A stretch of DNA of 64,000 nucleotides. Source: an uncultured virus (IMG/VR IMGVR_UViG_3300026549_000073) (Duplodnaviria; Heunggongvirae; Uroviricota; Caudoviricetes; Schitoviridae). Made by a program: the position numbers and the translations under genes. The DNA is taken from the IMG/VR virus record IMGVR_UViG_3300026549_000073. One strand, written 5' to 3'. The notes under the pieces are model-generated. The model worked only from the letters and a program-made list of their open reading frames with translations, had not been told where the DNA came from and ran no database searches. Of the stretch, positions 32,146 through 42,394 are shown one piece after another; position 1 is the first letter of the stretch, and each line of letters opens with the position of its first letter.

Positions 32146-32222
32146 GGACCATTAGCTTAGTTGGTTAAAGCAATCGGCTCATAACCGATGAATCGTAGGT
32201 TCGAGCCCTACATGGTTCACCA
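32146..32222 (+). tRNA. tRNA with CAT anticodon, probably tRNA-Ile2 (alternatively elongator Met)
   Basis: GGACCAT/ATGGTTC acceptor stem, ATCGG-CTCATAA-CCGAT anticodon arm, GGTTCGAG T-loop, encoded CCA. Confidence 0.9.
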
Positions 32223-32228
32223 TCTTTT

Positions 32229-32303
32229 ATGGGTATCGTATAAAGGTTATTACACTTGGCTTTGACCCAAGTAATATAGGTTCAATTCCTATTACCCATG
32301 CCA
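32229..32303 (+). tRNA. tRNA-Gln(TTG)
   Basis: ATGGGTA/TACCCAT acceptor, CTTGG-CTTTGAC-CCAAG, GGTTCAATTCC, G discriminator, CCA. Confidence 0.85.
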
Positions 32304-32314
32304 TAGGTATTATT

Positions 32315-33001
32315 ATGAATATATTTAAAGAATTTCATTATAGAGAAGTAACTGAGACTTTAAGAGAAATCTTAGACGGACCTTATAAAGGATATACTTT
32401 ATCTCATAAAGGTGCCTTATATAATAAAAACAAGGTGATTGTACCCCTTAACTCAACTAGGAGTCATCCTACCAGACATTTTACACAAGAAGGCTATACT
32501 ATTACTTTATGGCGTTTAATGTGCTATATCTGGTTAGATGATTTAACTGACTTTGAAGCAGATACCACAGAACAAGAGTATATCTATAATTATCAATTAA
32601 CTAAAAAGTTTTGGACTAAATATGCTTATTTAATCCCTAATGTATATAGAAATACTGAATCTTTTTATATTCCTTTACCTAGACTTATGGGATTTAACCT
32701 TAAGACAGGTAAAATAACAAGAATGAAAAGTAAAAATAGGTCAGTATTTAATTTAGGAGATTTAAGCCTTCCTACTATTGTTGCTGACTTTAAAGCTTTA
32801 ATTAATAATAAAAGTATTGAAGAGCATAAGGATAATATAGTTAAGATTGAAAATGTAGTAGAATTAGCTACTAGATATAAAAATCTATCTGCAGAAAATA
32901 AAGATTTATTAGAACAGATAGCTTATTTAACTACTAAACAAAATAATTTAACCCAAGAATTAACTGAAATTAAAGAAAAGCTGGCTTCAATACTTAAATG
33001 A
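32315..33001 (+). CDS. Hypothetical protein with C-terminal coiled coil
   Basis: 228-aa ORF with a heptad-rich C-terminus. Confidence 0.65.
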   Translation: MNIFKEFHYREVTETLREILDGPYKGYTLSHKGALYNKNKVIVPLNSTRSHPTRHFTQEGYTITLWRLMCYIWLDDLTDFEADTTEQEYIYNYQLTKKFWTKYAYLIPNVYRNTESFYIPLPRLMGFNLKTGKITRMKSKNRSVFNLGDLSLPTIVADFKALINNKSIEEHKDNIVKIENVVELATRYKNLSAENKDLLEQIAYLTTKQNNLTQELTEIKEKLASILK

Positions 33002-33486
33002 TAAAACAACTTACCTCTACTGAAATTAAACCTATCAAAGAACAGATACTGCACAGACAGGGTAATAAGTGTGCTATATGTGGTAAAACTATTACCTTAG
33101 AAGAAGCAGTATTAGACCATCAACATAAGAACAAAAAATCCGATGCCAATATCATTAATGGTAATGGTTTGGTTCGTGGAGTTCTTTGTAGAGAATGTAA
33201 TTTAGTAGAGGGTAAGATATGGAATAATCTTAAAAGATTTAAACAGTTTACTACTACAGAAGAAAGACTAATATGGCTTATCCAATTATCCCAATATTAT
33301 AAATACCCTAAGTATCCTTATATACATCCTACAGAAAAACTAAAGGAACCAATAGTTTCAAAGAGACAGTTTAATAAACTATGTAAACTATCAGGTAAAC
33401 AATTAGTTTATCCTAAATCTAAGAAACTAACTAAACCTTTAGAAAAACTATTTAATAAATACAATATAAACCCTTATAATAGTTAA
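32998..33486 (+). CDS. Endonuclease VII-like nuclease
   Basis: QGNKCAICG, VLDHQH, VRGVLCRECN, YIHP. Confidence 0.85.
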   Translation: MIKQLTSTEIKPIKEQILHRQGNKCAICGKTITLEEAVLDHQHKNKKSDANIINGNGLVRGVLCRECNLVEGKIWNNLKRFKQFTTTEERLIWLIQLSQYYKYPKYPYIHPTEKLKEPIVSKRQFNKLCKLSGKQLVYPKSKKLTKPLEKLFNKYNINPYNS

Positions 33487-33504
33487 AAACTATGAGAGGT
33501 GTAT

Positions 33505-33669
33505 ATGTTTTGTAGGTGTTATATATGTATGAGTACAGGAGATGTGTATAGAGTAGATAATTCTACAAAACCATATAGACTGTATAAATACTGCTTAGAT
33601 TTGCATGAGTGGGTAAGATTAAAAGGTCTTCCTGCTAAACAAATTCTGCAACAACTTAATATATTTTAA
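33505..33669 (+). CDS. Hypothetical protein, 54 aa
   Basis: GAGGT SD, MFCRCYICMSTGDVYR..., terminator at 33672-33697. Confidence 0.5.
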   Translation: MFCRCYICMSTGDVYRVDNSTKPYRLYKYCLDLHEWVRLKGLPAKQILQQLNIF

Positions 33670-33709
33670 ATAAAACCCTCCATTGTGAGGGTTTTTTATT
33701 GGAGTATAT

Positions 33710-34294
33710 ATGTACTGCCTAGAGAAGAAATTAAAAAGATATAACTATAAAGACCAAATAGATGCTTGGATAAATAATCATTATTTTCGTGTTAGTTCTC
33801 TTAAAGAATTTGCAGAGAATAGTATCTTCTGGTTTAAAGACAGTAATGCCTTTAATAATGGACTTATTCATTTTAATGGATATGAAGCTTGGTATTTAAT
33901 GGCAGATTCAAATCAAGGATTAGATTTTTTAAACTTTGTTAAAAAATATTTTAGGTCACCTCAAGAAGACCATGACTTTTATTTTAAAAGAACAGAAACT
34001 CTTATAAATTTTTTATGCACTAAAGCACATGATAATGTAAGATTTTCTGCAGGTATTTATTTGTACACTAATGCTACTATATTTAACACTATTTGCAATT
34101 TACAGAACCAAGCAACTAAGCTATATCAGTATTTTATTAATAGGGCTACTAGTAATGATTTAAGATGGTTAATGTATGCTTTATTTTTATATGAAACTTA
34201 CTTTAGATTAAATAAAGGAGAGAAAAAAATATATAATGAAAACCCCTTAAACTTTTATAAATATGCTGAAGGAAAGTTATCAATATTACAATGA
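33710..34294 (+). CDS. Hypothetical protein
   Basis: GGAG SD; ATGA overlap with the DNA polymerase gene. Confidence 0.65.
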   Translation: MYCLEKKLKRYNYKDQIDAWINNHYFRVSSLKEFAENSIFWFKDSNAFNNGLIHFNGYEAWYLMADSNQGLDFLNFVKKYFRSPQEDHDFYFKRTETLINFLCTKAHDNVRFSAGIYLYTNATIFNTICNLQNQATKLYQYFINRATSNDLRWLMYALFLYETYFRLNKGEKKIYNENPLNFYKYAEGKLSILQ

Positions 34295-35877
34295 ACATTC
34301 TATTAGTATTAAACTCTAAAATAACCTCTACAGAAATAAACACTTATTACTCTTTTCCTAATCATACAGTAACAGTTCTTAAAACACCTCCTTTAAATGG
34401 TAAGAAAAAGCTTAGTAGCACTGCTATTAAGCAACATTTTAGTTCTGTAGTCTATCCTTATATAGAATCTAAAAATATTAACTATTTAGGAATATGTGAT
34501 GCTGAGTATTTTAAAGTTATACATAAGACTACTAAGCCTGATACTTGTATCGGCTATGTATTTGATAGGATTAACTATAAGTATTTTTATCTACCTTCCT
34601 GTAAGAGCATTTTTTATCATCCAGAAGAAACTAAAGATAAGATTGCTAGAAGCATAGCAGCTGTTATCAATGATATAAATAATTGCTATACAGAACCGGG
34701 AACCAACATTATTAAATATGAAGAGTATCCAGATACTCCTATTAAGATTAAAAACAGTTTAAATAAGCTATTATCTTATCCTGCTCTTACATGTGATATT
34801 GAAACTTATTCATTAAGACATACAGAAGCAGGTCTTGGTTCTATTTGTTTTTGTTGGAATGAACATGAAGGCATAGCCTTTAAAATAGATACTAATCAAT
34901 TAACTAAGAACCAAGATGTAAGATTAGTATTAAAGGAGTTCTTTGATAATTATAAAGGTACTTTAATATTTCATAATATAGCTTTTGATGTAACTGTTTT
35001 AATCTATCAGCTATACATGAAAGATGTATTAGATACTGAAGGATTATTAAAAGGATTAGATACTTTATTAAAGAATTGGGAAGATACTAAGTTAATTACT
35101 TATTTATGTACCAATTCTTGTTCTGGTAACAACCTATCACTTAAGTATCAAGCACAAGAGTTTGCAGGTAACTGGGCTCAAGAAGAGATTGATAATATTG
35201 AAAAAATCTCTAAAGAACAGTTATTAAGATATAACTTAATAGATGGTTTATCTACTTGGTTCGTTTATAACAAATATAAAGATAAACTAATACAAGATAA
35301 ACAAGATAAGCTATATAACACTATCTTTAAAGGTACTACTAAGGACATCATACAAATGCAATTAACTGGTATTCCTTTAAATATGGATAAAGTATTAGAG
35401 GCTGAGAAAGTATTAACTGCTGATAAACAGAAAGCAGTTAATGTTTTATTACAAAACCAATACATTAAGTTATATACCAAACAACTTAAAGATGCTTGGG
35501 CAGATGAGTATAACAGTACTCATGTAAAGAAACAGGTAACAGCAGATGATAGTCCTATAGAGTTTAACCCTAATTCAGGTAAACAAATTAAAGAACTATT
35601 ATATGAAGTTATTAAGTTACCTGTTATTAATCTAACAGAAAGTAAACAACCTTCTACTGATGGCGATACTCTTAAAGCTTTAATTAATCATACTGAGAAC
35701 CAAGCAGTTAAAGATATATTACAAGCTTTAATAGATTATTCAGCAGCTGAGAAGATACTTACTGCCTTCATTCCTGCATTTAAAAAAGCATATAAAGCTA
35801 AAGACGGTAGGTCTTATTTATATGGTTCTTTTAATTTAGGAGGTACTGTATCAGGTAGATTAAGCAGTAGTAAACCT
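34291..35877 (+). CDS. Family A DNA polymerase, N-terminal gene, exon 1
   Basis: CDIETY, HNIAFD and YNLID exonuclease motifs; FNPNSGKQ; GTVSGRLSSSKP. Confidence 0.93.
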
Positions 35878-36142
35878 TAACAATAGGGCTTTAATATAGA
35901 AATATATTATCGAAACTACCTTAAACATGGAAAATCCTATAAAGGATAACCAAGTGCTAAATATTAAGATATTCTTAATTAAAAGCTAAACGACTAGGCA
36001 TATGCCGTACACTTAAGTAAGTGGAAATGGGTAGTATCTTACCAAGTAAAGTTGAAGATATTGATATAGTCTGCTCTTACAGGTAACTGTAAGCTGTGTT
36101 AACTCACGGGGATAGATTAACGACCTATTCTGAACACCAAGG
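35878..36142 (+). mobile_element. ORF-less group I intron 1 in DNA polymerase (265 nt)
   Basis: P1 AAACCU/AGGGCUUU, AACGACTA and GATATAGTCT core, terminal G; splicing gives SSKP-NMQQIP. Confidence 0.9.
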
Positions 36143-36248
36143 AATATGCAGCAGATACCTGCTACAGGTTCTAAGTATGCTAAACTAATTAAAGGATGTT
36201 TCCAAGCTCCTAAAGGTTGGTTATGGGTTGGTCTAGACTATGCTAGCT
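36143..36248 (+). CDS. DNA polymerase exon 2 (106 nt; start of motif A)
   Basis: NMQQIPATGSKYAKLIKGCFQAPKGWLWVGLDYAS; absent from the ORF track. Confidence 0.9.
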
Positions 36249-36501
36249 TAAATAATAGGCGAGCTAAATAGAAATATTTAGTGTTAAATTCATTGAAAAC
36301 GGTAAAACTCTAGAACAGACAATACCGTGCTAAGACTTGTATATACAAGTAAAGTGTAACGACTATTCCGAAGGGAAGTACACTCAAGTGAGTGGAAGTG
36401 GTGAACATCCAAAAGGATGAAGAGATAGTCTGCTCTGTATAGGGATATACAGCTGGATTAATTATCCGAGATAGGATTAACGACCCTATCTGAACATTTG
36501 G
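36249..36501 (+). mobile_element. ORF-less group I intron 2 in DNA polymerase (253 nt)
   Basis: P1 GCUAGCU/GGCGAGC with U-G at the splice site, AACGACTA and GAGATAGTCT core, terminal G; splicing gives DYAS-LEDHISAL. Confidence 0.88.
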
Positions 36502-36767
36502 TAGAAGACCATATCTCAGCATTAGTTACCAAAGACCCTAACAAGCTAAAGGTATATACCGATGAATATGATGGTCACTGTCTAAGAGCTTATTCTTACT
36601 GGACTTCTCTAATGCCTGATATTACAGCTAAATTAGATGAAATACATAAAAAAGGTAAGGTATATAAAGTAACTTATGACGATGGTTCTATTGAATATCT
36701 AAATGAAAACAATCCTAAATTAATTAAATTAAAGGAGAGCTCAAATGAAGGTAACTCAAGTAATTAA
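36502..36767 (+). CDS. DNA polymerase exon 3 (end of the N-terminal polypeptide; spliced product 652 aa)
   Basis: LEDHISALVTKDPNKLKVY..YDGHCLRAYSYW..MPDI, then a tail and stop. Confidence 0.85.
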
Positions 36768-37191
36768 AGAAGCTATTACAACTCGTGTTATGGCTAAATG
36801 TGAAGAGGCTAATAAAGACTATAGGTTAGCTTTAGATGAAGAAGAAAAGAGATTAAATAATGAGAGCAAACAGTGTCATGATGCCTTAAGAGAAGAATAT
36901 CATAAGGCTTTTATAGCTATGCTAAAGAAATTAGACGATAAGAAGATTGCTTATAATTATATTACCTATTCAGGCAATAAAATCATGGATAAAGAAGGTC
37001 TATGGGAAAAGAATATACCTTCTATTTGCATTTGCTTTAATTTAACTTCTGATTATGCTGAAGATTTAAGGTATAAAATTCAAGAGAACCAAGATAAAGC
37101 AAAGAAATTTATCAATGATATTATTCTAGAATTAGAGTTAGGAGCTACTAAGCCTACTCTAGAGTCTTTATTAAATAACATTACATTCTAA
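36745..37191 (+). CDS. Hypothetical protein nested between the polymerase halves
   Basis: AAGGAG SD, 148 aa, helical, no polymerase motifs. Confidence 0.75.
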   Translation: MKVTQVIKEAITTRVMAKCEEANKDYRLALDEEEKRLNNESKQCHDALREEYHKAFIAMLKKLDDKKIAYNYITYSGNKIMDKEGLWEKNIPSICICFNLTSDYAEDLRYKIQENQDKAKKFINDIILELELGATKPTLESLLNNITF

Positions 37192-37271
37192 TGAAAATAG
37201 AAGAAATATCTAAAACCAAGGCAGAAGTTGAGGTTATTAATAGTATTAAGCAATCTCATAACAATAACTAG
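37191..37271 (+). pseudogene. Orphan 26-codon start of the polymerase C-terminal gene
   Basis: MKIEEISKTKAEVEVINSIKQSH aligns with EIKEIDKTTAEVEIINSIKDTH at 38171-38236; TAATG coupling. Confidence 0.7.
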
Positions 37272-37326
37272 ATTTTATTAACAAAAGTAGGTATACTTTG
37301 TCTAATAATTAGTTAAGGAGAGTATT

Positions 37327-38151
37327 ATGGCAAAACCTACTAAATATTCTGAAAAAGATTTGTTAATTAAATTACAAGAAGTTATTCAAGGAAAATCCTT
37401 TACTTTAGTTGCTAAAGAATTAAATTATGGTGTGTCTTTTACATCCACTAAATTAAAAAATTTAGCAACTAAATATAATTTACTAGATAAATTAAATACA
37501 AGCTTACAAAAACAAAAATTAAATCGTATTAATAAAACAACTTTCTCTAATGAATCAAGTAATTATATTAAAAGTATTCAAAATATTCCTTGTGTTTGGA
37601 AAGCCTGGAATGGGTATGAAATATCTTCTTCTGGTTTAGTAAAAAGAAAAGGTAATTATTTAAAATATTCTTTTAAGCATTCTAAATTTACTACATATGC
37701 TAGAGTAACTATTTATTTAAATGGTAAAAGAAAATATTATTCAGTGCACCGTCTAATTTTAGAAGTTTTTAATCCTTGTTCTAATATGGAAAATCTTCAA
37801 GCAGATCATATTGATAGAAATGGATTAAATAATAATATTAATAATTTAAGATGGTGTACTGGTTCGGAAAATATTAAATATTCTTTTATTAATAATACTA
37901 CTGTAAAGAAAGGCATATGTAGTACAGGAGGACAAGTAACTGGAAATATATTAAGAAATAAAGCAATTTTAAAATACTCTAATTTATTATTAGATAGATT
38001 TATTTCTTATAATAAAAATGGAACTATAACATATAAATGTAAAAAATGTTTAGCAACTTATACTGAATCTAATACTTCAAGAGCTTTTAGATTTGGTAAT
38101 GATGGAATTTGTACTAATTGTAGGAAAATTTATGTCACTAAAGGAGAATAA
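37327..38151 (+). CDS. Free-standing HNH homing endonuclease with C-terminal CxxC...CxxC
   Basis: YEISSSG, SVHRLILEVF, DHIDRNGLNNNINNLRW, CKKC...CTNC; AAGGAG SD; no intron core seen around it. Confidence 0.88.
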   Translation: MAKPTKYSEKDLLIKLQEVIQGKSFTLVAKELNYGVSFTSTKLKNLATKYNLLDKLNTSLQKQKLNRINKTTFSNESSNYIKSIQNIPCVWKAWNGYEISSSGLVKRKGNYLKYSFKHSKFTTYARVTIYLNGKRKYYSVHRLILEVFNPCSNMENLQADHIDRNGLNNNINNLRWCTGSENIKYSFINNTTVKKGICSTGGQVTGNILRNKAILKYSNLLLDRFISYNKNGTITYKCKKCLATYTESNTSRAFRFGNDGICTNCRKIYVTKGE

Positions 38152-38155
38152 CCTT

Positions 38156-38890
38156 TTGGCATCTGTCATAGAGATTAAAGAAATAGATAAAACTACAGCA
38201 GAAGTAGAAATTATCAATAGCATTAAAGATACTCATAAAGCTCTAAGACAGAAGTCAAAAGGTCCGTAACTAACCTTTGCTTTAACTTATGCTGGTACTT
38301 GGATGACTTTAGTTAAAAACTTTGGTTTTACTGAAGAAGAAGCTAAGCATATTGAGAACCAATACCATACCTTATACAGCCACTCTGATAAGGTAATTGC
38401 TAACAGACTAGAGATAGCTGCTAAGCAAGGCTATGAAGAAGTAGCTTTTGGTCTAAGAGTTAGATGCCCTAAAATGCATCAATCTCTTATGGGTATTAAA
38501 GCTACTCCTAAAGAAGCAGAGGCAGAGAAACGTACTGCAGGTAATGCTATAGGTCAATCCTTTGGTTTATTAACTAATAGAGCAGGTATTGAATTTAATA
38601 CCTTGGTTCGTAATAGTAAATACAGATATTCTGTTAAACCTATTATTATGATTCATGATGCTCTATATTATTTAATTCGTGATAATATAGATACTGTTTT
38701 ATGGGTTAATAAGCATTTATCTGAAGCAGTTAAATGGCAAGAAGAACCTCAAATTCAACATGATAAAGTACATTTATCAGGAGAGTTATCTATATTCTAC
38801 CCTGACTGGGCACATGAGTTATCTCTCCCTAATGATTTAGATAAAGATACTTTATGTAATTTAGTTAAAACTTTTAAGGATAGTTTATAA
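38156..38890 (+). CDS. Family A DNA polymerase C-terminal gene (TTG start, in-frame TAA at 38267-38269)
   Basis: AAGGAG + TTG; INSIK..LRQKSKGP*LTFALTYAG (motif B), RTAGNAIGQS, MIHDALY (motif C); the ORF track shows only 38303 onward. Confidence 0.85.
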
Positions 38891-39222
38891 TGGCAGATAC
38901 TAATTTATATTATTTAGGCGTATTTAATATCTCATTCCATAAGAAAGATGAAGAGAAGATTCATACTCATGTACTTAACAATGTATTCATTGGTAAGCAG
39001 ACTTTAAATGAGCCTACTTTAGTAGCAGCTAGAGCACAGATGGCTAAGAAGTTCCTACAGGTATTTGAAGGAGCTGAGATTTTAGATATTGCTATCATGA
39101 ATATTGTTCCTTTGGGTCTTATGACTCCTGATGAGTGGAGTCCTAAGGAGTTCCGAGAGAAGATGGAAGAAGCTTCTAAGAAAGAAGAAGAAGATTCTAA
39201 AAAGGAAGAACCAAAAGAGTAA
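38890..39222 (+). CDS. Conserved N4-like hypothetical protein (gp40 position)
   Basis: DIAIMNIVPLGLMTPDEW C-terminal motif; TAATG coupling to the polymerase. Confidence 0.65.
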   Translation: MADTNLYYLGVFNISFHKKDEEKIHTHVLNNVFIGKQTLNEPTLVAARAQMAKKFLQVFEGAEILDIAIMNIVPLGLMTPDEWSPKEFREKMEEASKKEEEDSKKEEPKE

Positions 39223-39264
39223 TAATAAGACCCTGCTAAGGCAGGGTTTTTTAATGGTGTAATT

Positions 39265-40227
39265 ATGCAAATAAAGCAAAAGAAACTTAAAAATGAAGAT
39301 GGTATTAGTTTCCCTTTCTCTGTTTGGTTAGCTAATGATAGCTATGACTATATTACAGAAGATAACTATATATCAGCTACTCAATTATTAAAGCCTACCA
39401 GACAAGTTATTTTAAGTATGCGCTCAGACGCTGATATAGACATCAGAGACCGCCTTGCAGTATCAACTGGTACTGCTATCCATGACTCAGTAGAAAAGGC
39501 TTGGATGGAGCATTATGACGCTAATATGAGGGCTTTAGGATATAGTGAAGACTTTATCTCTAAAATTAAAATTAACCCTGAGAAATTAGAGTTAGGAGAC
39601 ATTCCTATCTATATAGAGCAAAGAGCTGTTAAAGAACTAGATGGTTTTAAGATTGGCGGTAAGTTTGACTTTGTTTTAAATGGTAATTTACATGACATTA
39701 AAACATCTTCTACTTATACCTATATAGAAGACTCTAAAAGAGAAGATTATATACTACAAGGAAGTATATATAGATACCTGAACCAAGATATTATTACTGG
39801 TTCAGAAATTACTATTGATTATTTCTTTACTGATTGGAGTAAAATAAATGCTCTATCAAATAATCAATACCCACAGTCTAGATGTTTATCTAAGAGTTAT
39901 CCTTTACTTTCTGTTTTGGATACTGAGCAGTATCTAAGAACCAAGTTACAAGAAATAAAAGATAATTTAGATAAACCAGAGGATGAGATTATTCCTTGTC
40001 CAGATAAAGATTTATGGTTATCTCCTACAGTTTATAAATACTATAGTGATTCTACTAAAACTAATGGTAGAGCTACTAAGAACTTTACTTCTTTAGAAGA
40101 AGCTAATGCTTATGCTACAAGTAAAGGTAAGGGTATTATTAAAACTGTACTAGGTACACCTAAACGCTGTATGTATTGCCCTGCTTATAGTATATGTTCA
40201 CAACGTAGAAGGTATTACAATGATTGA
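39265..40227 (+). CDS. PD-(D/E)xK / Cas4-like nuclease (N4 gp42-like)
   Basis: ISATQLLKP, GTAIHD, EQR, GGKFD...DIK, QGSIY, RCMYC...IC. Confidence 0.8.
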   Translation: MQIKQKKLKNEDGISFPFSVWLANDSYDYITEDNYISATQLLKPTRQVILSMRSDADIDIRDRLAVSTGTAIHDSVEKAWMEHYDANMRALGYSEDFISKIKINPEKLELGDIPIYIEQRAVKELDGFKIGGKFDFVLNGNLHDIKTSSTYTYIEDSKREDYILQGSIYRYLNQDIITGSEITIDYFFTDWSKINALSNNQYPQSRCLSKSYPLLSVLDTEQYLRTKLQEIKDNLDKPEDEIIPCPDKDLWLSPTVYKYYSDSTKTNGRATKNFTSLEEANAYATSKGKGIIKTVLGTPKRCMYCPAYSICSQRRRYYND

Positions 40228-42394
40228 CCTAACTAAAGTAAGCCATCATCCATGTATTGAAGAACTTACAAATTTATTATGTGTTAAAACTTTAAATCAA
40301 GATAAAAACTTTTATAGACCTTTAATTGCTTACTTCTTAGCTGTAATGGCTAGTTCTCAAAGAGCCTATGTTCATACAAAAGATAGAGGTAATATCCCTA
40401 TTAATTTATATGTTATTAACTTGGCTCCATCAGGATATGGTAAAGGATTATCAACAGGCATGTTAGAAGATATTACTAAAGAATTTAGAAACTTCTTCAT
40501 GAATGTTACATTCCCTACTTTATTAGACCAAAATTTAAAAAATTTATCAGCTCAAAGAGCTTCATTATCTCATACAGACCAACAGTCTGAATATGAAGAA
40601 TTATTAAAGCAATCAGAGAGAGCAGGTAGACCTATATTTGTATTTGATAGTGGTACTACTCCTGCAGTTAAGCAGTACAGAAATAAACTGTTATTAGCTA
40701 AATGTGGTGCTCTTAATTTCCAGTGTGATGAAATTGGTTCTAACTTAATGGCTAATACAGACCTTATGAACTCTTTCTTAGAGTTATTTGATAAAGGTCT
40801 TATTAAGAATAAGTTAGTTAAAAATACACAGGATAATGTAAGAGATATTGACCTAGGAGGTAATACTCCAGCTAACTGTTTATTATTTGGTACTCAAGAT
40901 AAAATCTTTGATGGTTCAGCTACAGAAGATTTATTCTATTCTTTTCTAGAAATTGGTTATGCAAGAAGATGTTTATTTGGTATTGGTAAGACTATGAAAG
41001 CTAAGTCTTACTATACTATGTCAGCTGCAGAAATGTATAACCAGTTAATTCAACCTAATAATGATGCTACTGCTAATAAATGGAGCAGCACCTTTTTAAA
41101 GTTAGCTAATCCAGCTTACTATAATAGAAGAATTGAATTACCTGATGATGTAGCTATTCAGTTATTAGAGTACAGAAAAGAGTGTGATATTGAAGCAGAT
41201 AAGTTACCTGAATTTGCAGGAACCAAGAAAGCTGAATTATCACACAGACATTTTAAAGCTCTTAAATTAGCAGGAGCTTTAGCTTTTATTGATAATGCTC
41301 CTACTATTACTATGACTTGTTTACTACAAGCTATTAAGCTTGTAGAAGAATCTGGTAAGTCATTCCAAACTATCCTTAATAGAGATAAGCCTTATATGAA
41401 ATTAGCTAAGTATCTGATGGGATGTGATACTCCACAGACTCATGCTGATTTACTAGAGGCATTACCATTCTATAAAGCTAGCTCTAAGAATGACATGATG
41501 GCATTGGCTCAGGCTTATGCTTATAGTCAACATGGTCTTATTAAAAAGACCTATATGGATGGTATTGAGTTCTTTAAGGGTGAATCCTTAAAAGCTACTG
41601 ATTTAGATAAGATGATTTTATCTTATAGTAACGATGTAGCTTATGGATATAAGAACGTACAAGTACCTTTTAAATCTTTATATAAGATGACCCATGCTAA
41701 TACTTTAATGCACTGGATTAACCATCATGTTAAAGATGGACACAGATGTGATATGTGTTCATATAATAAATTCAATATGATTGTTATTGATTGTGATGGT
41801 GAAATCAATCTTAAGTTAGCTATGGATTTAATGAAAGAATATACTTTCTTTGTTCATACCACTAAATCTAATGTAGAACCAGATAACAATAGATTTAGAA
41901 TGGTTATTCCTATTGCTTATGAGTTAGAGTTAGATAAGGAAGACTATAAAGAATTTATGAATAATATTCTTAATTGGCTTCCTTTCCACTCTGATGAAGG
42001 AACCAATAGTAGAGTAAAGAAATGGGAAAGTTGTTCTAAAGGTTCTTGTTTTGGGCAAAATATTAATTTTACCTATAACGAGGGAGTACTGTTAGACCCA
42101 TTACCATTTATTCCTCATACTATGAGAAATGAAAGGTATCAGAAAGAGAACAAGAAAGCTATTGAAAACTTAGATAACTTAGCACGTTGGTTCGCTATTA
42201 GAATTTCTATTGGTAATAGAAATAATAATATGATTAAGTATGCATTGGCTCTTAAGGATTCTGGATTACCTTATCCAGAAGTAGAAGCTAGAGTACTAGG
42301 TTTAAATAAGCAATTAACTTCTCCACTATCAACTGAAGAATTATCTAATACAGTATTAAAATCAGTAGCACAAGGATACGTAAAGAATGAGTGA
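40220..42394 (+). CDS. DNA primase (N4 Dns/gp43-like)
   Basis: APSGYGKG, FDSGTTPAVKQ, DEIGSNL, DCDG, TTKS, RFR, GNRNN PriCT-like C-terminus. Confidence 0.85.
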   Translation: MIDLTKVSHHPCIEELTNLLCVKTLNQDKNFYRPLIAYFLAVMASSQRAYVHTKDRGNIPINLYVINLAPSGYGKGLSTGMLEDITKEFRNFFMNVTFPTLLDQNLKNLSAQRASLSHTDQQSEYEELLKQSERAGRPIFVFDSGTTPAVKQYRNKLLLAKCGALNFQCDEIGSNLMANTDLMNSFLELFDKGLIKNKLVKNTQDNVRDIDLGGNTPANCLLFGTQDKIFDGSATEDLFYSFLEIGYARRCLFGIGKTMKAKSYYTMSAAEMYNQLIQPNNDATANKWSSTFLKLANPAYYNRRIELPDDVAIQLLEYRKECDIEADKLPEFAGTKKAELSHRHFKALKLAGALAFIDNAPTITMTCLLQAIKLVEESGKSFQTILNRDKPYMKLAKYLMGCDTPQTHADLLEALPFYKASSKNDMMALAQAYAYSQHGLIKKTYMDGIEFFKGESLKATDLDKMILSYSNDVAYGYKNVQVPFKSLYKMTHANTLMHWINHHVKDGHRCDMCSYNKFNMIVIDCDGEINLKLAMDLMKEYTFFVHTTKSNVEPDNNRFRMVIPIAYELELDKEDYKEFMNNILNWLPFHSDEGTNSRVKKWESCSKGSCFGQNINFTYNEGVLLDPLPFIPHTMRNERYQKENKKAIENLDNLARWFAIRISIGNRNNNMIKYALALKDSGLPYPEVEARVLGLNKQLTSPLSTEELSNTVLKSVAQGYVKNE

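Follow-up and report, generated by a model that had tools for sequence, protein, structure and literature searches.

The 64,000-nt stretch of DNA analyzed here (IMG/VR record IMGVR_UViG_3300026549_000073, referred to as the window) is from an N4-like (Schitoviridae) phage of cattle-gut metagenomes. The family A DNA polymerase of its clade is encoded by two genes, polN and polC. In the window, polC is interrupted within motif B by six bases, TAA CTA (38267..38272), that begin with an in-frame stop codon. The six bases form the end of a cassette with an HNH homing endonuclease gene, and inserts of the same build recur at four sites of motif B in related polymerases. We propose that the insert confers immunity to the endonuclease and is probably bypassed by a short ribosomal hop over the stop, as a miniature analogue of the T4 gene 60/MobA system. 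A real stop-led insert, its origin in a cassette and about twenty lineages with the same build indicate that ribosomes most likely hop. A preliminary description of the window had raised a stop-hop and compared it with gene 60. We favor that reading in view of the split gene, the HNH gene upstream, the insert at the cassette end and the 20 other variants, and translation across the gap would follow from it.

A stop-led insert in motif B of the polymerase

Codons 38249-38266 of the polymerase frame read R Q K S K G P, followed by TAA (38267-38269) and CTA (38270-38272), and TFALTYAG resumes from 38273. This confirms the frame ...LRQKSKGP-TAA-L-TFALTYAG of the preliminary description, as well as its placement of the next in-frame ATG at 38303. 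Deleting the six bases restores RxxSKxPTFALTY, as it had also stated, which is the form found in phage N4 gp39 (RQDSKAPTFALTY), an Alteromonas N4-like phage (RSASKAPTFALTY) and other relatives. The uninterrupted motif of these two phages places the 6 nt between the Lys and the Phe of motif B. The spacing of the motif B residues R, K, F and Y is invariant in intact loci (72 of 81 in IMG/VR and 71 of 78 in metagenome contigs).

Assembly error is excluded as the source of the insert. Contigs of two further metagenomes in IMG/VR agree with the window at 100% and 99.98%, insert included (L004 and L005). A 593-nt DNA contig from another study (X5) covers 37976-38568 with no mismatch and no gap, and a 70,027-nt contig of a diverged strain with different intron content (X6) covers 37247-38600 with 21 mismatches and no gap. 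Insert-carrying contigs have depths of 39-58. No form lacking the six bases was seen in the runs, all of which are contigs, in which rare variants are dropped. A megablast search with the gene returned no match among GenBank phages. The same insert thus occurs in other metagenomes and studies, with similar inserts in related polymerases, and is not unique to this genome.

TAA is the usual stop codon of the window, where it ends 28 of the 42 open reading frames (ORFs) of at least 120 aa, so we rejected a recoding of TAA. The window encodes only tRNA-Met and tRNA-Gln(UUG) and no suppressor tRNA.

The insert is the end of an HNH cassette

Five close relatives (L006-L010, with 79-99% aa identity in polC) read ...SIKQSHKDLRQRSKGCTFALTYAGTW, with the motif ...SKGCTFALTY, and have neither the 6 nt nor the cassette. 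They align to the window up to 37261 and again from 38178 and 38273, and their single polC start matches both 37201-37261 and 38178-38238. These alignment breaks and the duplicated polC start reveal a 1011-nt insertion in the window at 37262..38272 (plus strand, as are the other parts of the polymerase locus given here). The cassette comprises the HNH gene, a foreign polC 5' end and TAACTA, and it replaced 28 nt of the native gene. Its right border is the exact end of the insert, and from 38273 the window is again 92-95% identical to the five relatives.

The HNH homing endonuclease gene (37327..38151) encodes 274 aa with a Pfam HNH_3 domain (E = 7e-9; 35.6 bits against a curated cut-off of 24.8). 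Its closest counterpart is the HNH of the L036 cassette, at 40% identity. In type, the foreign polC 5' end corresponds to protein P0025, whose sequence begins MASVIEIKAIDKTTAEVEIINSIKDTHK (MASVIEIK) and whose motif B is uninterrupted. IMG/VR searches for the donor allele and for the HNH returned only the window's own lineage, and the HNH had no match in metagenome contigs.

The native polC start persists as a remnant (37193..37271) with 23 codons at 37193-37261 (MKIEEISKTKAEVEVINSIKQSH), followed by a foreign tail and a TAG. Relatives, for example P0003, read on at this point as intact polC, and the remnant is a 77% duplicate of 38178-38238. In the X6 strain, 55 nt of it are already deleted, as expected of a dead remnant. 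The first part of the interrupted gene (polC ORF1, 38132..38266) starts at ATG 38132, which has a homologous ATG in the sister cassettes L036, L188 and L192, or at TTG 38156. The second part (polC ORF2, 38273..38890) holds TFALTYAG and all that follows, including motif C, and shares 53-58% identity with N4-like polymerases and 98-99% aa identity with the relatives.

Two other loci illustrate mobility. L020 and L032 are 86-92% identical from the polN tail through the HNH gene and insert, whereas their flanks share 50-65% in polN and 64-76% beyond the cassette. Judged by these alignments, the cassette moves between lineages.

Similar inserts recur at four sites of motif B

We surveyed polC loci by profile, covering 80 loci plus L020 in IMG/VR and 80 loci in metagenome contigs, of which 78 were evaluable. 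Inserts of 5 or 6 nt interrupt motif B in 8 of the 80 IMG/VR loci and in L020, leaving 72 of 81 intact. Among the 78 metagenome loci, five have inserts, 71 are intact, one has an extra T and one, on a short contig, is ambiguous (L123). The extra T lies in the motif B TTT of L181 (Ga0228698_1013273; ACG TTTT GCT) and causes a frameshift that is probably a homopolymer error in a 2.4-kb contig. All eight variants from these unbiased surveys have an in-frame stop first. Four further pattern scans, which forced only the first triplet to TRR, brought the total to 21 variants. Where the preliminary description had suggested aligning related polymerases for the same insert, this search yielded 20 other variants of the same design.

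The variants fall at four sites, P|T, T|F, L|T and T|Y. At P|T, the 6-nt inserts are CCG[TAACTA]ACC (window), CCG[TGAACA]ACA (L036), CCT[TAGCTT]ACA (L188/L190) and CCT[TAGCTT]ACG (L192). The T|F site has eight 5-nt variants, for example ACC[TGACT]TTC, ACT[TAACT]TTT and ACG[TAGTG]TTC. The L|T site has two 6-nt variants, CTT[TAGCTT]ACC (L144) and CTT[TAGCTA]ACC (L212). Seven 5-nt variants occupy the T|Y site, such as ACG[TAGCG]TAT, ACG[TAACG]TAC and ACT[TAACT]TAT. Inserts occur in genomes that are 98-100% complete.

An HNH-family ORF lies directly upstream in 16 of the 21 variants. In many loci an HNH_3 ORF, usually with NUMOD4, ends just before polC. The adjacent HNH was identified by Pfam in the window, L032, L036, L079, L085, L094, L020, L190 and L192, by six-frame search in L193, L198, L199, L206, L207 and, weakly, L211, and by homology of the upstream ORF in L113, L178, L127 and L144. 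The insert (TGACT) and the polC start are the same in loci L079 and L178, but the two HNHs are only 36% identical, and that of L079 is about 49% identical to the type of coliphage SP5M. The nuclease thus appears to have been swapped while the insert stayed. Neither P0065 nor the L085 cassette has a close GenBank phage.

Stop codon and proposed landing triplet

The first triplet of the insert varies, yet it is always a stop. TAA, TAG and TGA each occur at P|T, T|F and T|Y. At T|F, a plain duplication would give TTA, which is not a stop, yet all eight variants there have one.

The last sense codon before the stop is the proposed take-off codon, CCG (Pro, 38264..38266) in the window, and CTA is the proposed landing triplet. 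We scored by hand, under standard wobble rules, the triplet that would occupy the P site after a hop of the exact insert length. It can pair with the take-off tRNA in 20 of the 21 variants, being identical or synonymous in ten and wobble-paired in ten. Five of the latter have G for A at the first position (G·U with U36). Four have U for C in the middle (U·G with G35), namely the window (CCG to CUA), two CCU to CUU variants and one other. One variant has two wobbles (ACG to GUG). At P|T, CUN follows CCN in three of four variants, and L144 (CUU UAG CUU) and L212 (CUU UAG CUA) fit the geometry of a stop-hop exactly.

The strongest rival, though an unlikely one, is that a near-cognate tRNA reads through the stop and that two extra residues (x-Leu) between the motif B Lys and Phe leave the enzyme functional. 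The insert of the window is in frame, as are those of all four P|T and both L|T variants, at 6 nt each. Pro-stop contexts are established to be slow to terminate, and the phage tRNA-Gln(UUG) is near-cognate to UAA. The two residues would, however, enter helix O, where the spacing of R, K, F and Y is invariant in intact loci. A sense insert would also serve read-through better, yet every variant keeps a stop, and the window offers no suppressor tRNA. Read-through also cannot rescue the fifteen 5-nt variants, which have the same architecture of HNH, hairpin and stop first.

Selection on the interrupted gene

We computed dN/dS (omega) by the Nei-Gojobori method downstream of the insert. L020 and L032, both with a frameshifting 5-nt insert, differ by a dS of 1.35 and a dN of 0.20 (omega = 0.15). 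Pairs with and without an insert give omega = 0.10 (L036 and L038) and 0.08 (L079 and L062). For the window lineage and L027, omega is 0.03 (dN/dS = 0.027), a value that largely records history before the cassette arrived and to that extent counts against our reading. Between L020 and L032, the eight codons that lead from the insert to the next ATG have changed mainly synonymously, which argues for translation from the landing point and not from the ATG. By these substitution patterns, the coding sequence after the inserts is under purifying selection.

These data bear on a second rival, that the polymerase gene is dead, the cassette is selfish, and the phage uses the polymerase of a co-infecting relative or is a transient defective lineage. 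Similar samples do contain intact relatives, with several loci from a single metagenome (3300045988), and homing endonucleases are known to be able to spread at a cost. We nevertheless consider this improbable. L020, L032 and L113 retained the insert through the dS and low omega given above, and the codons up to the ATG of L020 and L032 changed mostly synonymously. Inserts are found in near-complete genomes and in contigs of good depth (both as given above), and the same design occurs at four sites. The window holds one polA only, with no second family A polymerase found within it by tblastn with N4 gp39. The defective gene or genome that the preliminary description had offered as an alternative is thus unlikely in view of purifying selection and long retention in sister lineages.

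A third possibility is that the 6 nt are excised from the mRNA, either as a micro-intron or in trans by the two group I-like introns that the transcript also contains. The gene does hold two spliced introns, whose starts (TAACAA... and TAAATA...) resemble the insert, and in a cultured relative, Acinetobacter phage nACB1, motif B is interrupted by an intron that carries an HNH. By convention, group I introns have a U before the 5' splice site and a G as their last base. The inserts lack this signature, being preceded by G or C and ending in A, T or G; that of the window is preceded by G and ends in A, and 6 nt are too small for a ribozyme core. The HNH ORF of L020 overlaps both the polN end and the polC start, which leaves no space for an intron. 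Splicing also needs neither a conserved stop nor matched codons, and a 26-kb RNA-library contig (X1) is identical to the DNA, possibly through DNA carry-over. We therefore regard excision as very unlikely. An imprecisely lost intron, also raised in the preliminary description, could account for the origin of the insert but fails to explain how the gene is expressed.

Least credible of all is a three-piece polymerase that stops at TAA and restarts at ATG 38303 to give an enzyme without TFALTYAGTW, for although the ORF at 38303-38890 is intact and gene callers annotate such shortened products (P0097, P0110 and P0119, for example), helix O would lose its Phe and Tyr, no Shine-Dalgarno-like purine run lies just before 38303, and the codons from the insert to the ATG evolve as coding sequence.

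A predicted hairpin abuts the proposed take-off codon

The preliminary description placed the insert in the 9-nt loop of a small hairpin formed by AAAGGT and ACCTTT. This pairing exists but is not above chance (z = -0.09; 81 of 200 shuffles fold as well), and we rejected the small hairpin. In a 161-nt minimum free energy fold, AAAGGU pairs instead with ACCUUU at 38151-38156. It thereby forms the base of a larger hairpin, an inverted repeat at 38151..38263 of -34 kcal/mol (z = -2.8; 0 of 200 shuffles). The last pair, 38151:38263, and with it the 3' arm, ends one base before CCG. In all 11 loci examined, the helix ends 0 nt (nine loci) or 2 nt (L036 and L085) from the take-off codon.

A ribosome has a footprint of 12 nt at this side of the take-off codon. 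We calculated the energy gained when the 12 nt 5' of that codon are freed to pair with upstream mRNA, which mimics exit from the ribosome. The 11 insert loci gain -7.8 to -19.7 kcal/mol in this way, against averages of -2.9 to -3.3 kcal/mol (sd 2.1-2.9) at the same codons of 114 distinct intact loci (Mann-Whitney p = 2e-8 by locus and, with eight variants, 1e-6 by variant). None of the 114 controls at the P|T site matches the window (-15.0 kcal/mol) or L036 (-19.7 kcal/mol). Later variants gain -8.5 to -21.3 kcal/mol, with the exception of L212 at -5.3 kcal/mol. The window, L036, L188 and L192 have this long helix in common but differ in the sequences that build it. Compensatory change is seen in 3 of 11 pairs of the T|F family, where 91% of cells are paired as opposed to 33-67% when the register is slid, among three distinct sequences only. 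The split locus L040 (IMGVR_UViG_3300028797_001397), which has no insert, forms the strongest T|F control hairpin at -16.2 kcal/mol and could be either a lineage that lost its insert or a chance structure.

Proposed bypass of the insert

We suggest that the HNH cassette (37262-38272) entered the polC start and brought with it the donor polC 5' end and TAA CTA. By interrupting the endonuclease target where the gene is most conserved, the insert would keep the carrier genome from being cut by its own enzyme. This immunity role is proposed by analogy with MobA and the 50-nt insert of gene 60.

In translation, the ribosome would stall after 37-45 polC codons, when peptidyl-tRNA-Pro sits on CCG and the A site holds TAA, a Pro-stop context in which termination is slow. 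The 17-bp base of the hairpin, whose 3' arm is still within the ribosome, may then re-form at the mRNA exit and favor forward movement. The tRNA, with a UGG anticodon, could re-pair 6 nt further on at CUA (C:G, U·G, A:U). Decoding would resume at ACC to give ...SKGP-TFALTY... with no extra residue, and the product of a 6-nt hop would contain the peptide GPTFALTYAGTWMTLVK. In the Thr-stop variants, ribosomes would slide 5 nt in the same way. On a broader scale, N4-like phages may well hold a family of natural 5-6-nt stop-hops in the catalytic motif of an essential polymerase, which HNH endonucleases create or spread as immunity inserts. A hairpin at the exit would drive the stalled ribosome on, with no take-off stem-loop, to a cognate or wobble-matched triplet where the P-site tRNA can pair again.

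Several observations weigh against a ribosomal hop and its link to the endonuclease. CCG and CUA of the window are non-cognate and pair only through the middle U·G wobble. The preliminary description had noted the mismatch of CCG and CTA, and its caveat is correct as to the codons, but it is softened by this wobble and by CUN in three of the four P|T inserts. In L036 there is a true mismatch (CCG to ACA), with one position unable to pair. The T|Y inserts come close to perfect tandem duplications of ACNTA. Such a duplication automatically gives TAA and a matched Thr codon, so the pattern may in part be a trace of the way in which the inserts arose, for example by fill-in at a staggered cut. Control loci also reach -7.8 kcal/mol in 3, 5, 10 and 8 of 114 cases at the four sites, and the 6-nt gap is too short for a take-off stem-loop of the gene 60 type. 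In X4, the one independent RNA library in which spliced contigs occur, positions 38222-38415 are not covered.

Five of the 21 variants have no adjacent HNH_3 (L195; L202; L204/L205/L208; L209; L212). None was found in the 98% complete genome of L195 or in the complete 74,313-nt genome of L212, and the sole HNH of L202 is 9 kb distant; the gene has no split just upstream in L195, L202 and L212. In the reverse case, an HNH precedes polC with an intact motif B in L041, L070-L073/L080, L104 and the cultured coliphage SP5M. With 16 of the 21 variants next to an HNH, five without and these four HNH lineages without an insert, the link is strong and not absolute. The variant counts are not independent, given common ancestry within cassette families. 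No cultured N4-like phage with a mini-insert was found in the inspected part of 469 polC-matching records. Two candidates were set aside, nACB1 because its motif B holds a full intron instead and SP5M because its motif is intact despite the HNH.

The take-off codon is codon 37-47 of polC in split cassettes (45 in the window when counted from ATG 38132 and 37 from TTG 38156) and codon 169 in L212. The position at codon 37-47 may simply reflect where the fingers domain tolerates a split.

Comparison with known bypass systems

To our knowledge, programmed bypass has been established at the bench for essentially one phage gene, T4 gene 60 with its homologues, and for yeast mitochondria. The mitochondrial inserts of Magnusiomyces are longer than those described here, at about 27-55 nt. 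Like ours, they are many short non-coding inserts in essential genes. Their take-off and landing codons match, as they do in part of our variants, but they are mitochondrial, have a take-off hairpin inside the gap and come with no endonuclease link in the account of Lang et al. 2014 given in PMC7026636.

The gene 60/MobA system (Bonocora et al. 2011, as cited in PMC5009743 and PMC7026636) offers the closest parallel. Its cassette, the stop after the take-off codon and the refolding of upstream mRNA at the exit are described in a passage of PMC7026636, and the cassette is also treated in section 12 of a preprint by Manning and Atkins (bioRxiv 10.1101/2022.08.31.505936). In those accounts, as in the window, an essential gene is split (T4 gene 39/mobA/gene 60) with an endonuclease gene between its halves. 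A stop-led non-coding insert follows soon after the second start, at codon 46 there and codon 37 or 45 here. The insert travels with the endonuclease, and some lineages retain it after losing the nuclease; section 12 of the preprint says of MobA elements that the bypass insert can outlive the nuclease. Both systems have mRNA structure on the 5' side of take-off, which here comes from a predicted fold. Exit-side pairing is named as a driver in the title of bioRxiv 10.1101/2024.12.09.627546. Homologues of gene 60 do not conserve the 5' stem-loop, according to section 19 of the preprint by Manning and Atkins, so the leading role that we suggest for the hairpin would be a difference and not a common trait.

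Other differences are plain. The gap is 50 nt in gene 60 as described in these sources and 5-6 nt here, where neither a take-off stem-loop nor an internal Shine-Dalgarno sequence could fit. In T4 a topoisomerase is the target and here a family A DNA polymerase, and the nuclease here is an HNH_3/NUMOD4 protein. The T4 bypass differs, too, from the one proposed here in that ours is a prediction from sequence.

Synthetic stop-hops in E. coli (ref. 54 of PMC5009743) also combine a sense codon, a stop and a similar codon, with 9 nt yielding one amino acid in the summary given there, but they are engineered constructs, and the CCG/CUA pair of the window is unmatched. For natural hopping over an in-frame stop, the same 2016 source states that 'no occurrences are known'. 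Section 12 of bioRxiv 10.1101/2022.08.31.505936 terms the gene 60 bypass cassette unique. Our full-text literature search, with subscription journals outside its coverage, turned up no account of inserts of this kind in phage polymerases, N4-like or other.

Phage nACB1 (OQ032511.1) shares the motif B target, and its HNH is 50-57% identical to the HNHs of the T|Y cassettes. The interruption of the motif presumably protects against self-cleavage in both cases. In nACB1, however, the interruption is a spliced group I intron of about 0.85 kb, whereas a free-standing nuclease gene and 5-6 nt are present here.

If the inserts are hopped, the minimal needs of bypass would be a stop, a near-matched triplet and an exit-side hairpin, and the 21 natural variants would be ready-made mutants for testing this model. 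Homing endonucleases would then have driven recoding repeatedly and not just once. Short-range bypass would thereby have its first natural system, and one in which dozens of variants could be dissected. The inserts also affect gene prediction. Database proteins that start with MYVTYAGTW, MEHYVTYGGTW or MKNFGF are gene calls truncated by such inserts. Gene callers cut or split these genes into 190-207-aa 'DNA polymerase' products, and annotation pipelines and phage polA phylogenies are affected accordingly.

Organization of the polymerase locus

A tblastn search of the window with N4 gp39 recovers four collinear pieces of 49-59% identity that include motifs A, B and C, and precomputed Pfam annotation assigns DNA_pol_A to polC homologues. 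Free-standing polC genes account for hundreds of database proteins of about 238-250 aa, which indicates that a two-gene polymerase is the normal state of the clade. The N-terminal part, polN, is 47-49% identical to N4-like DNA polymerases. It begins with exon 1 (34291..35877), an ORF that covers the exonuclease and thumb up to ...GRLSSSKP and was located by tblastn with N4 gp39. Exon 2 (36143..36248) contains motif A (...GLDYASL), and exon 3 with the C-terminal tail follows at 36502..36767 (stop at 36765-36767).

The exons are separated by two introns without ORFs. Intron 1 (265 nt, 35878..36142) is lacking in the relatives L006-L009, which have the exact 35877|36143 junction, and a contig of RNA library X4 connects 35877 to 36143 and so shows it spliced. 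Intron 2 (253 nt, 36249..36501) is missing from L006, L008, L009 and the X6 contig, where 36248 is joined to 36502. The presence of both varies among close relatives. Start motifs (TAACAATAGG / TAAATAATAGG) and 3' halves are common to the two introns, which also look like the 3' part of the nACB1 HNH intron. Intron 1 of the X6 strain has 537 extra letters (at window 35965-35977), and intron 2 is longer by about 590 nt in L007 and L010/L031. The extra stretch of L031 encodes an HNH_3 ORF with an I-HmuI-like NUMOD domain (L031:238-792). By these extra stretches and the HNH ORF of L031, the introns are carriers of homing endonucleases in some strains.

Between polN and polC lies a cargo gene, ORF148 (36745..37191), which overlaps the polN end. 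It has 82-84% nt identity in relatives and no Pfam match, and other small genes fill its slot in other split loci. An Rfam search of 33000-41000 returned only two sub-threshold matches (Phe leader and RsmY) near 39085-39255 and no intron family at E <= 1. The GC-rich hairpin and T-run at 39085-39255, after the gene at 38890-39222, resemble an intrinsic terminator. The genes for tRNA-Met(CAT) and tRNA-Gln(TTG) are at 32146-32303, directly upstream of the replication module. The minus strand of the window contains an open ORF of 4329 codons.

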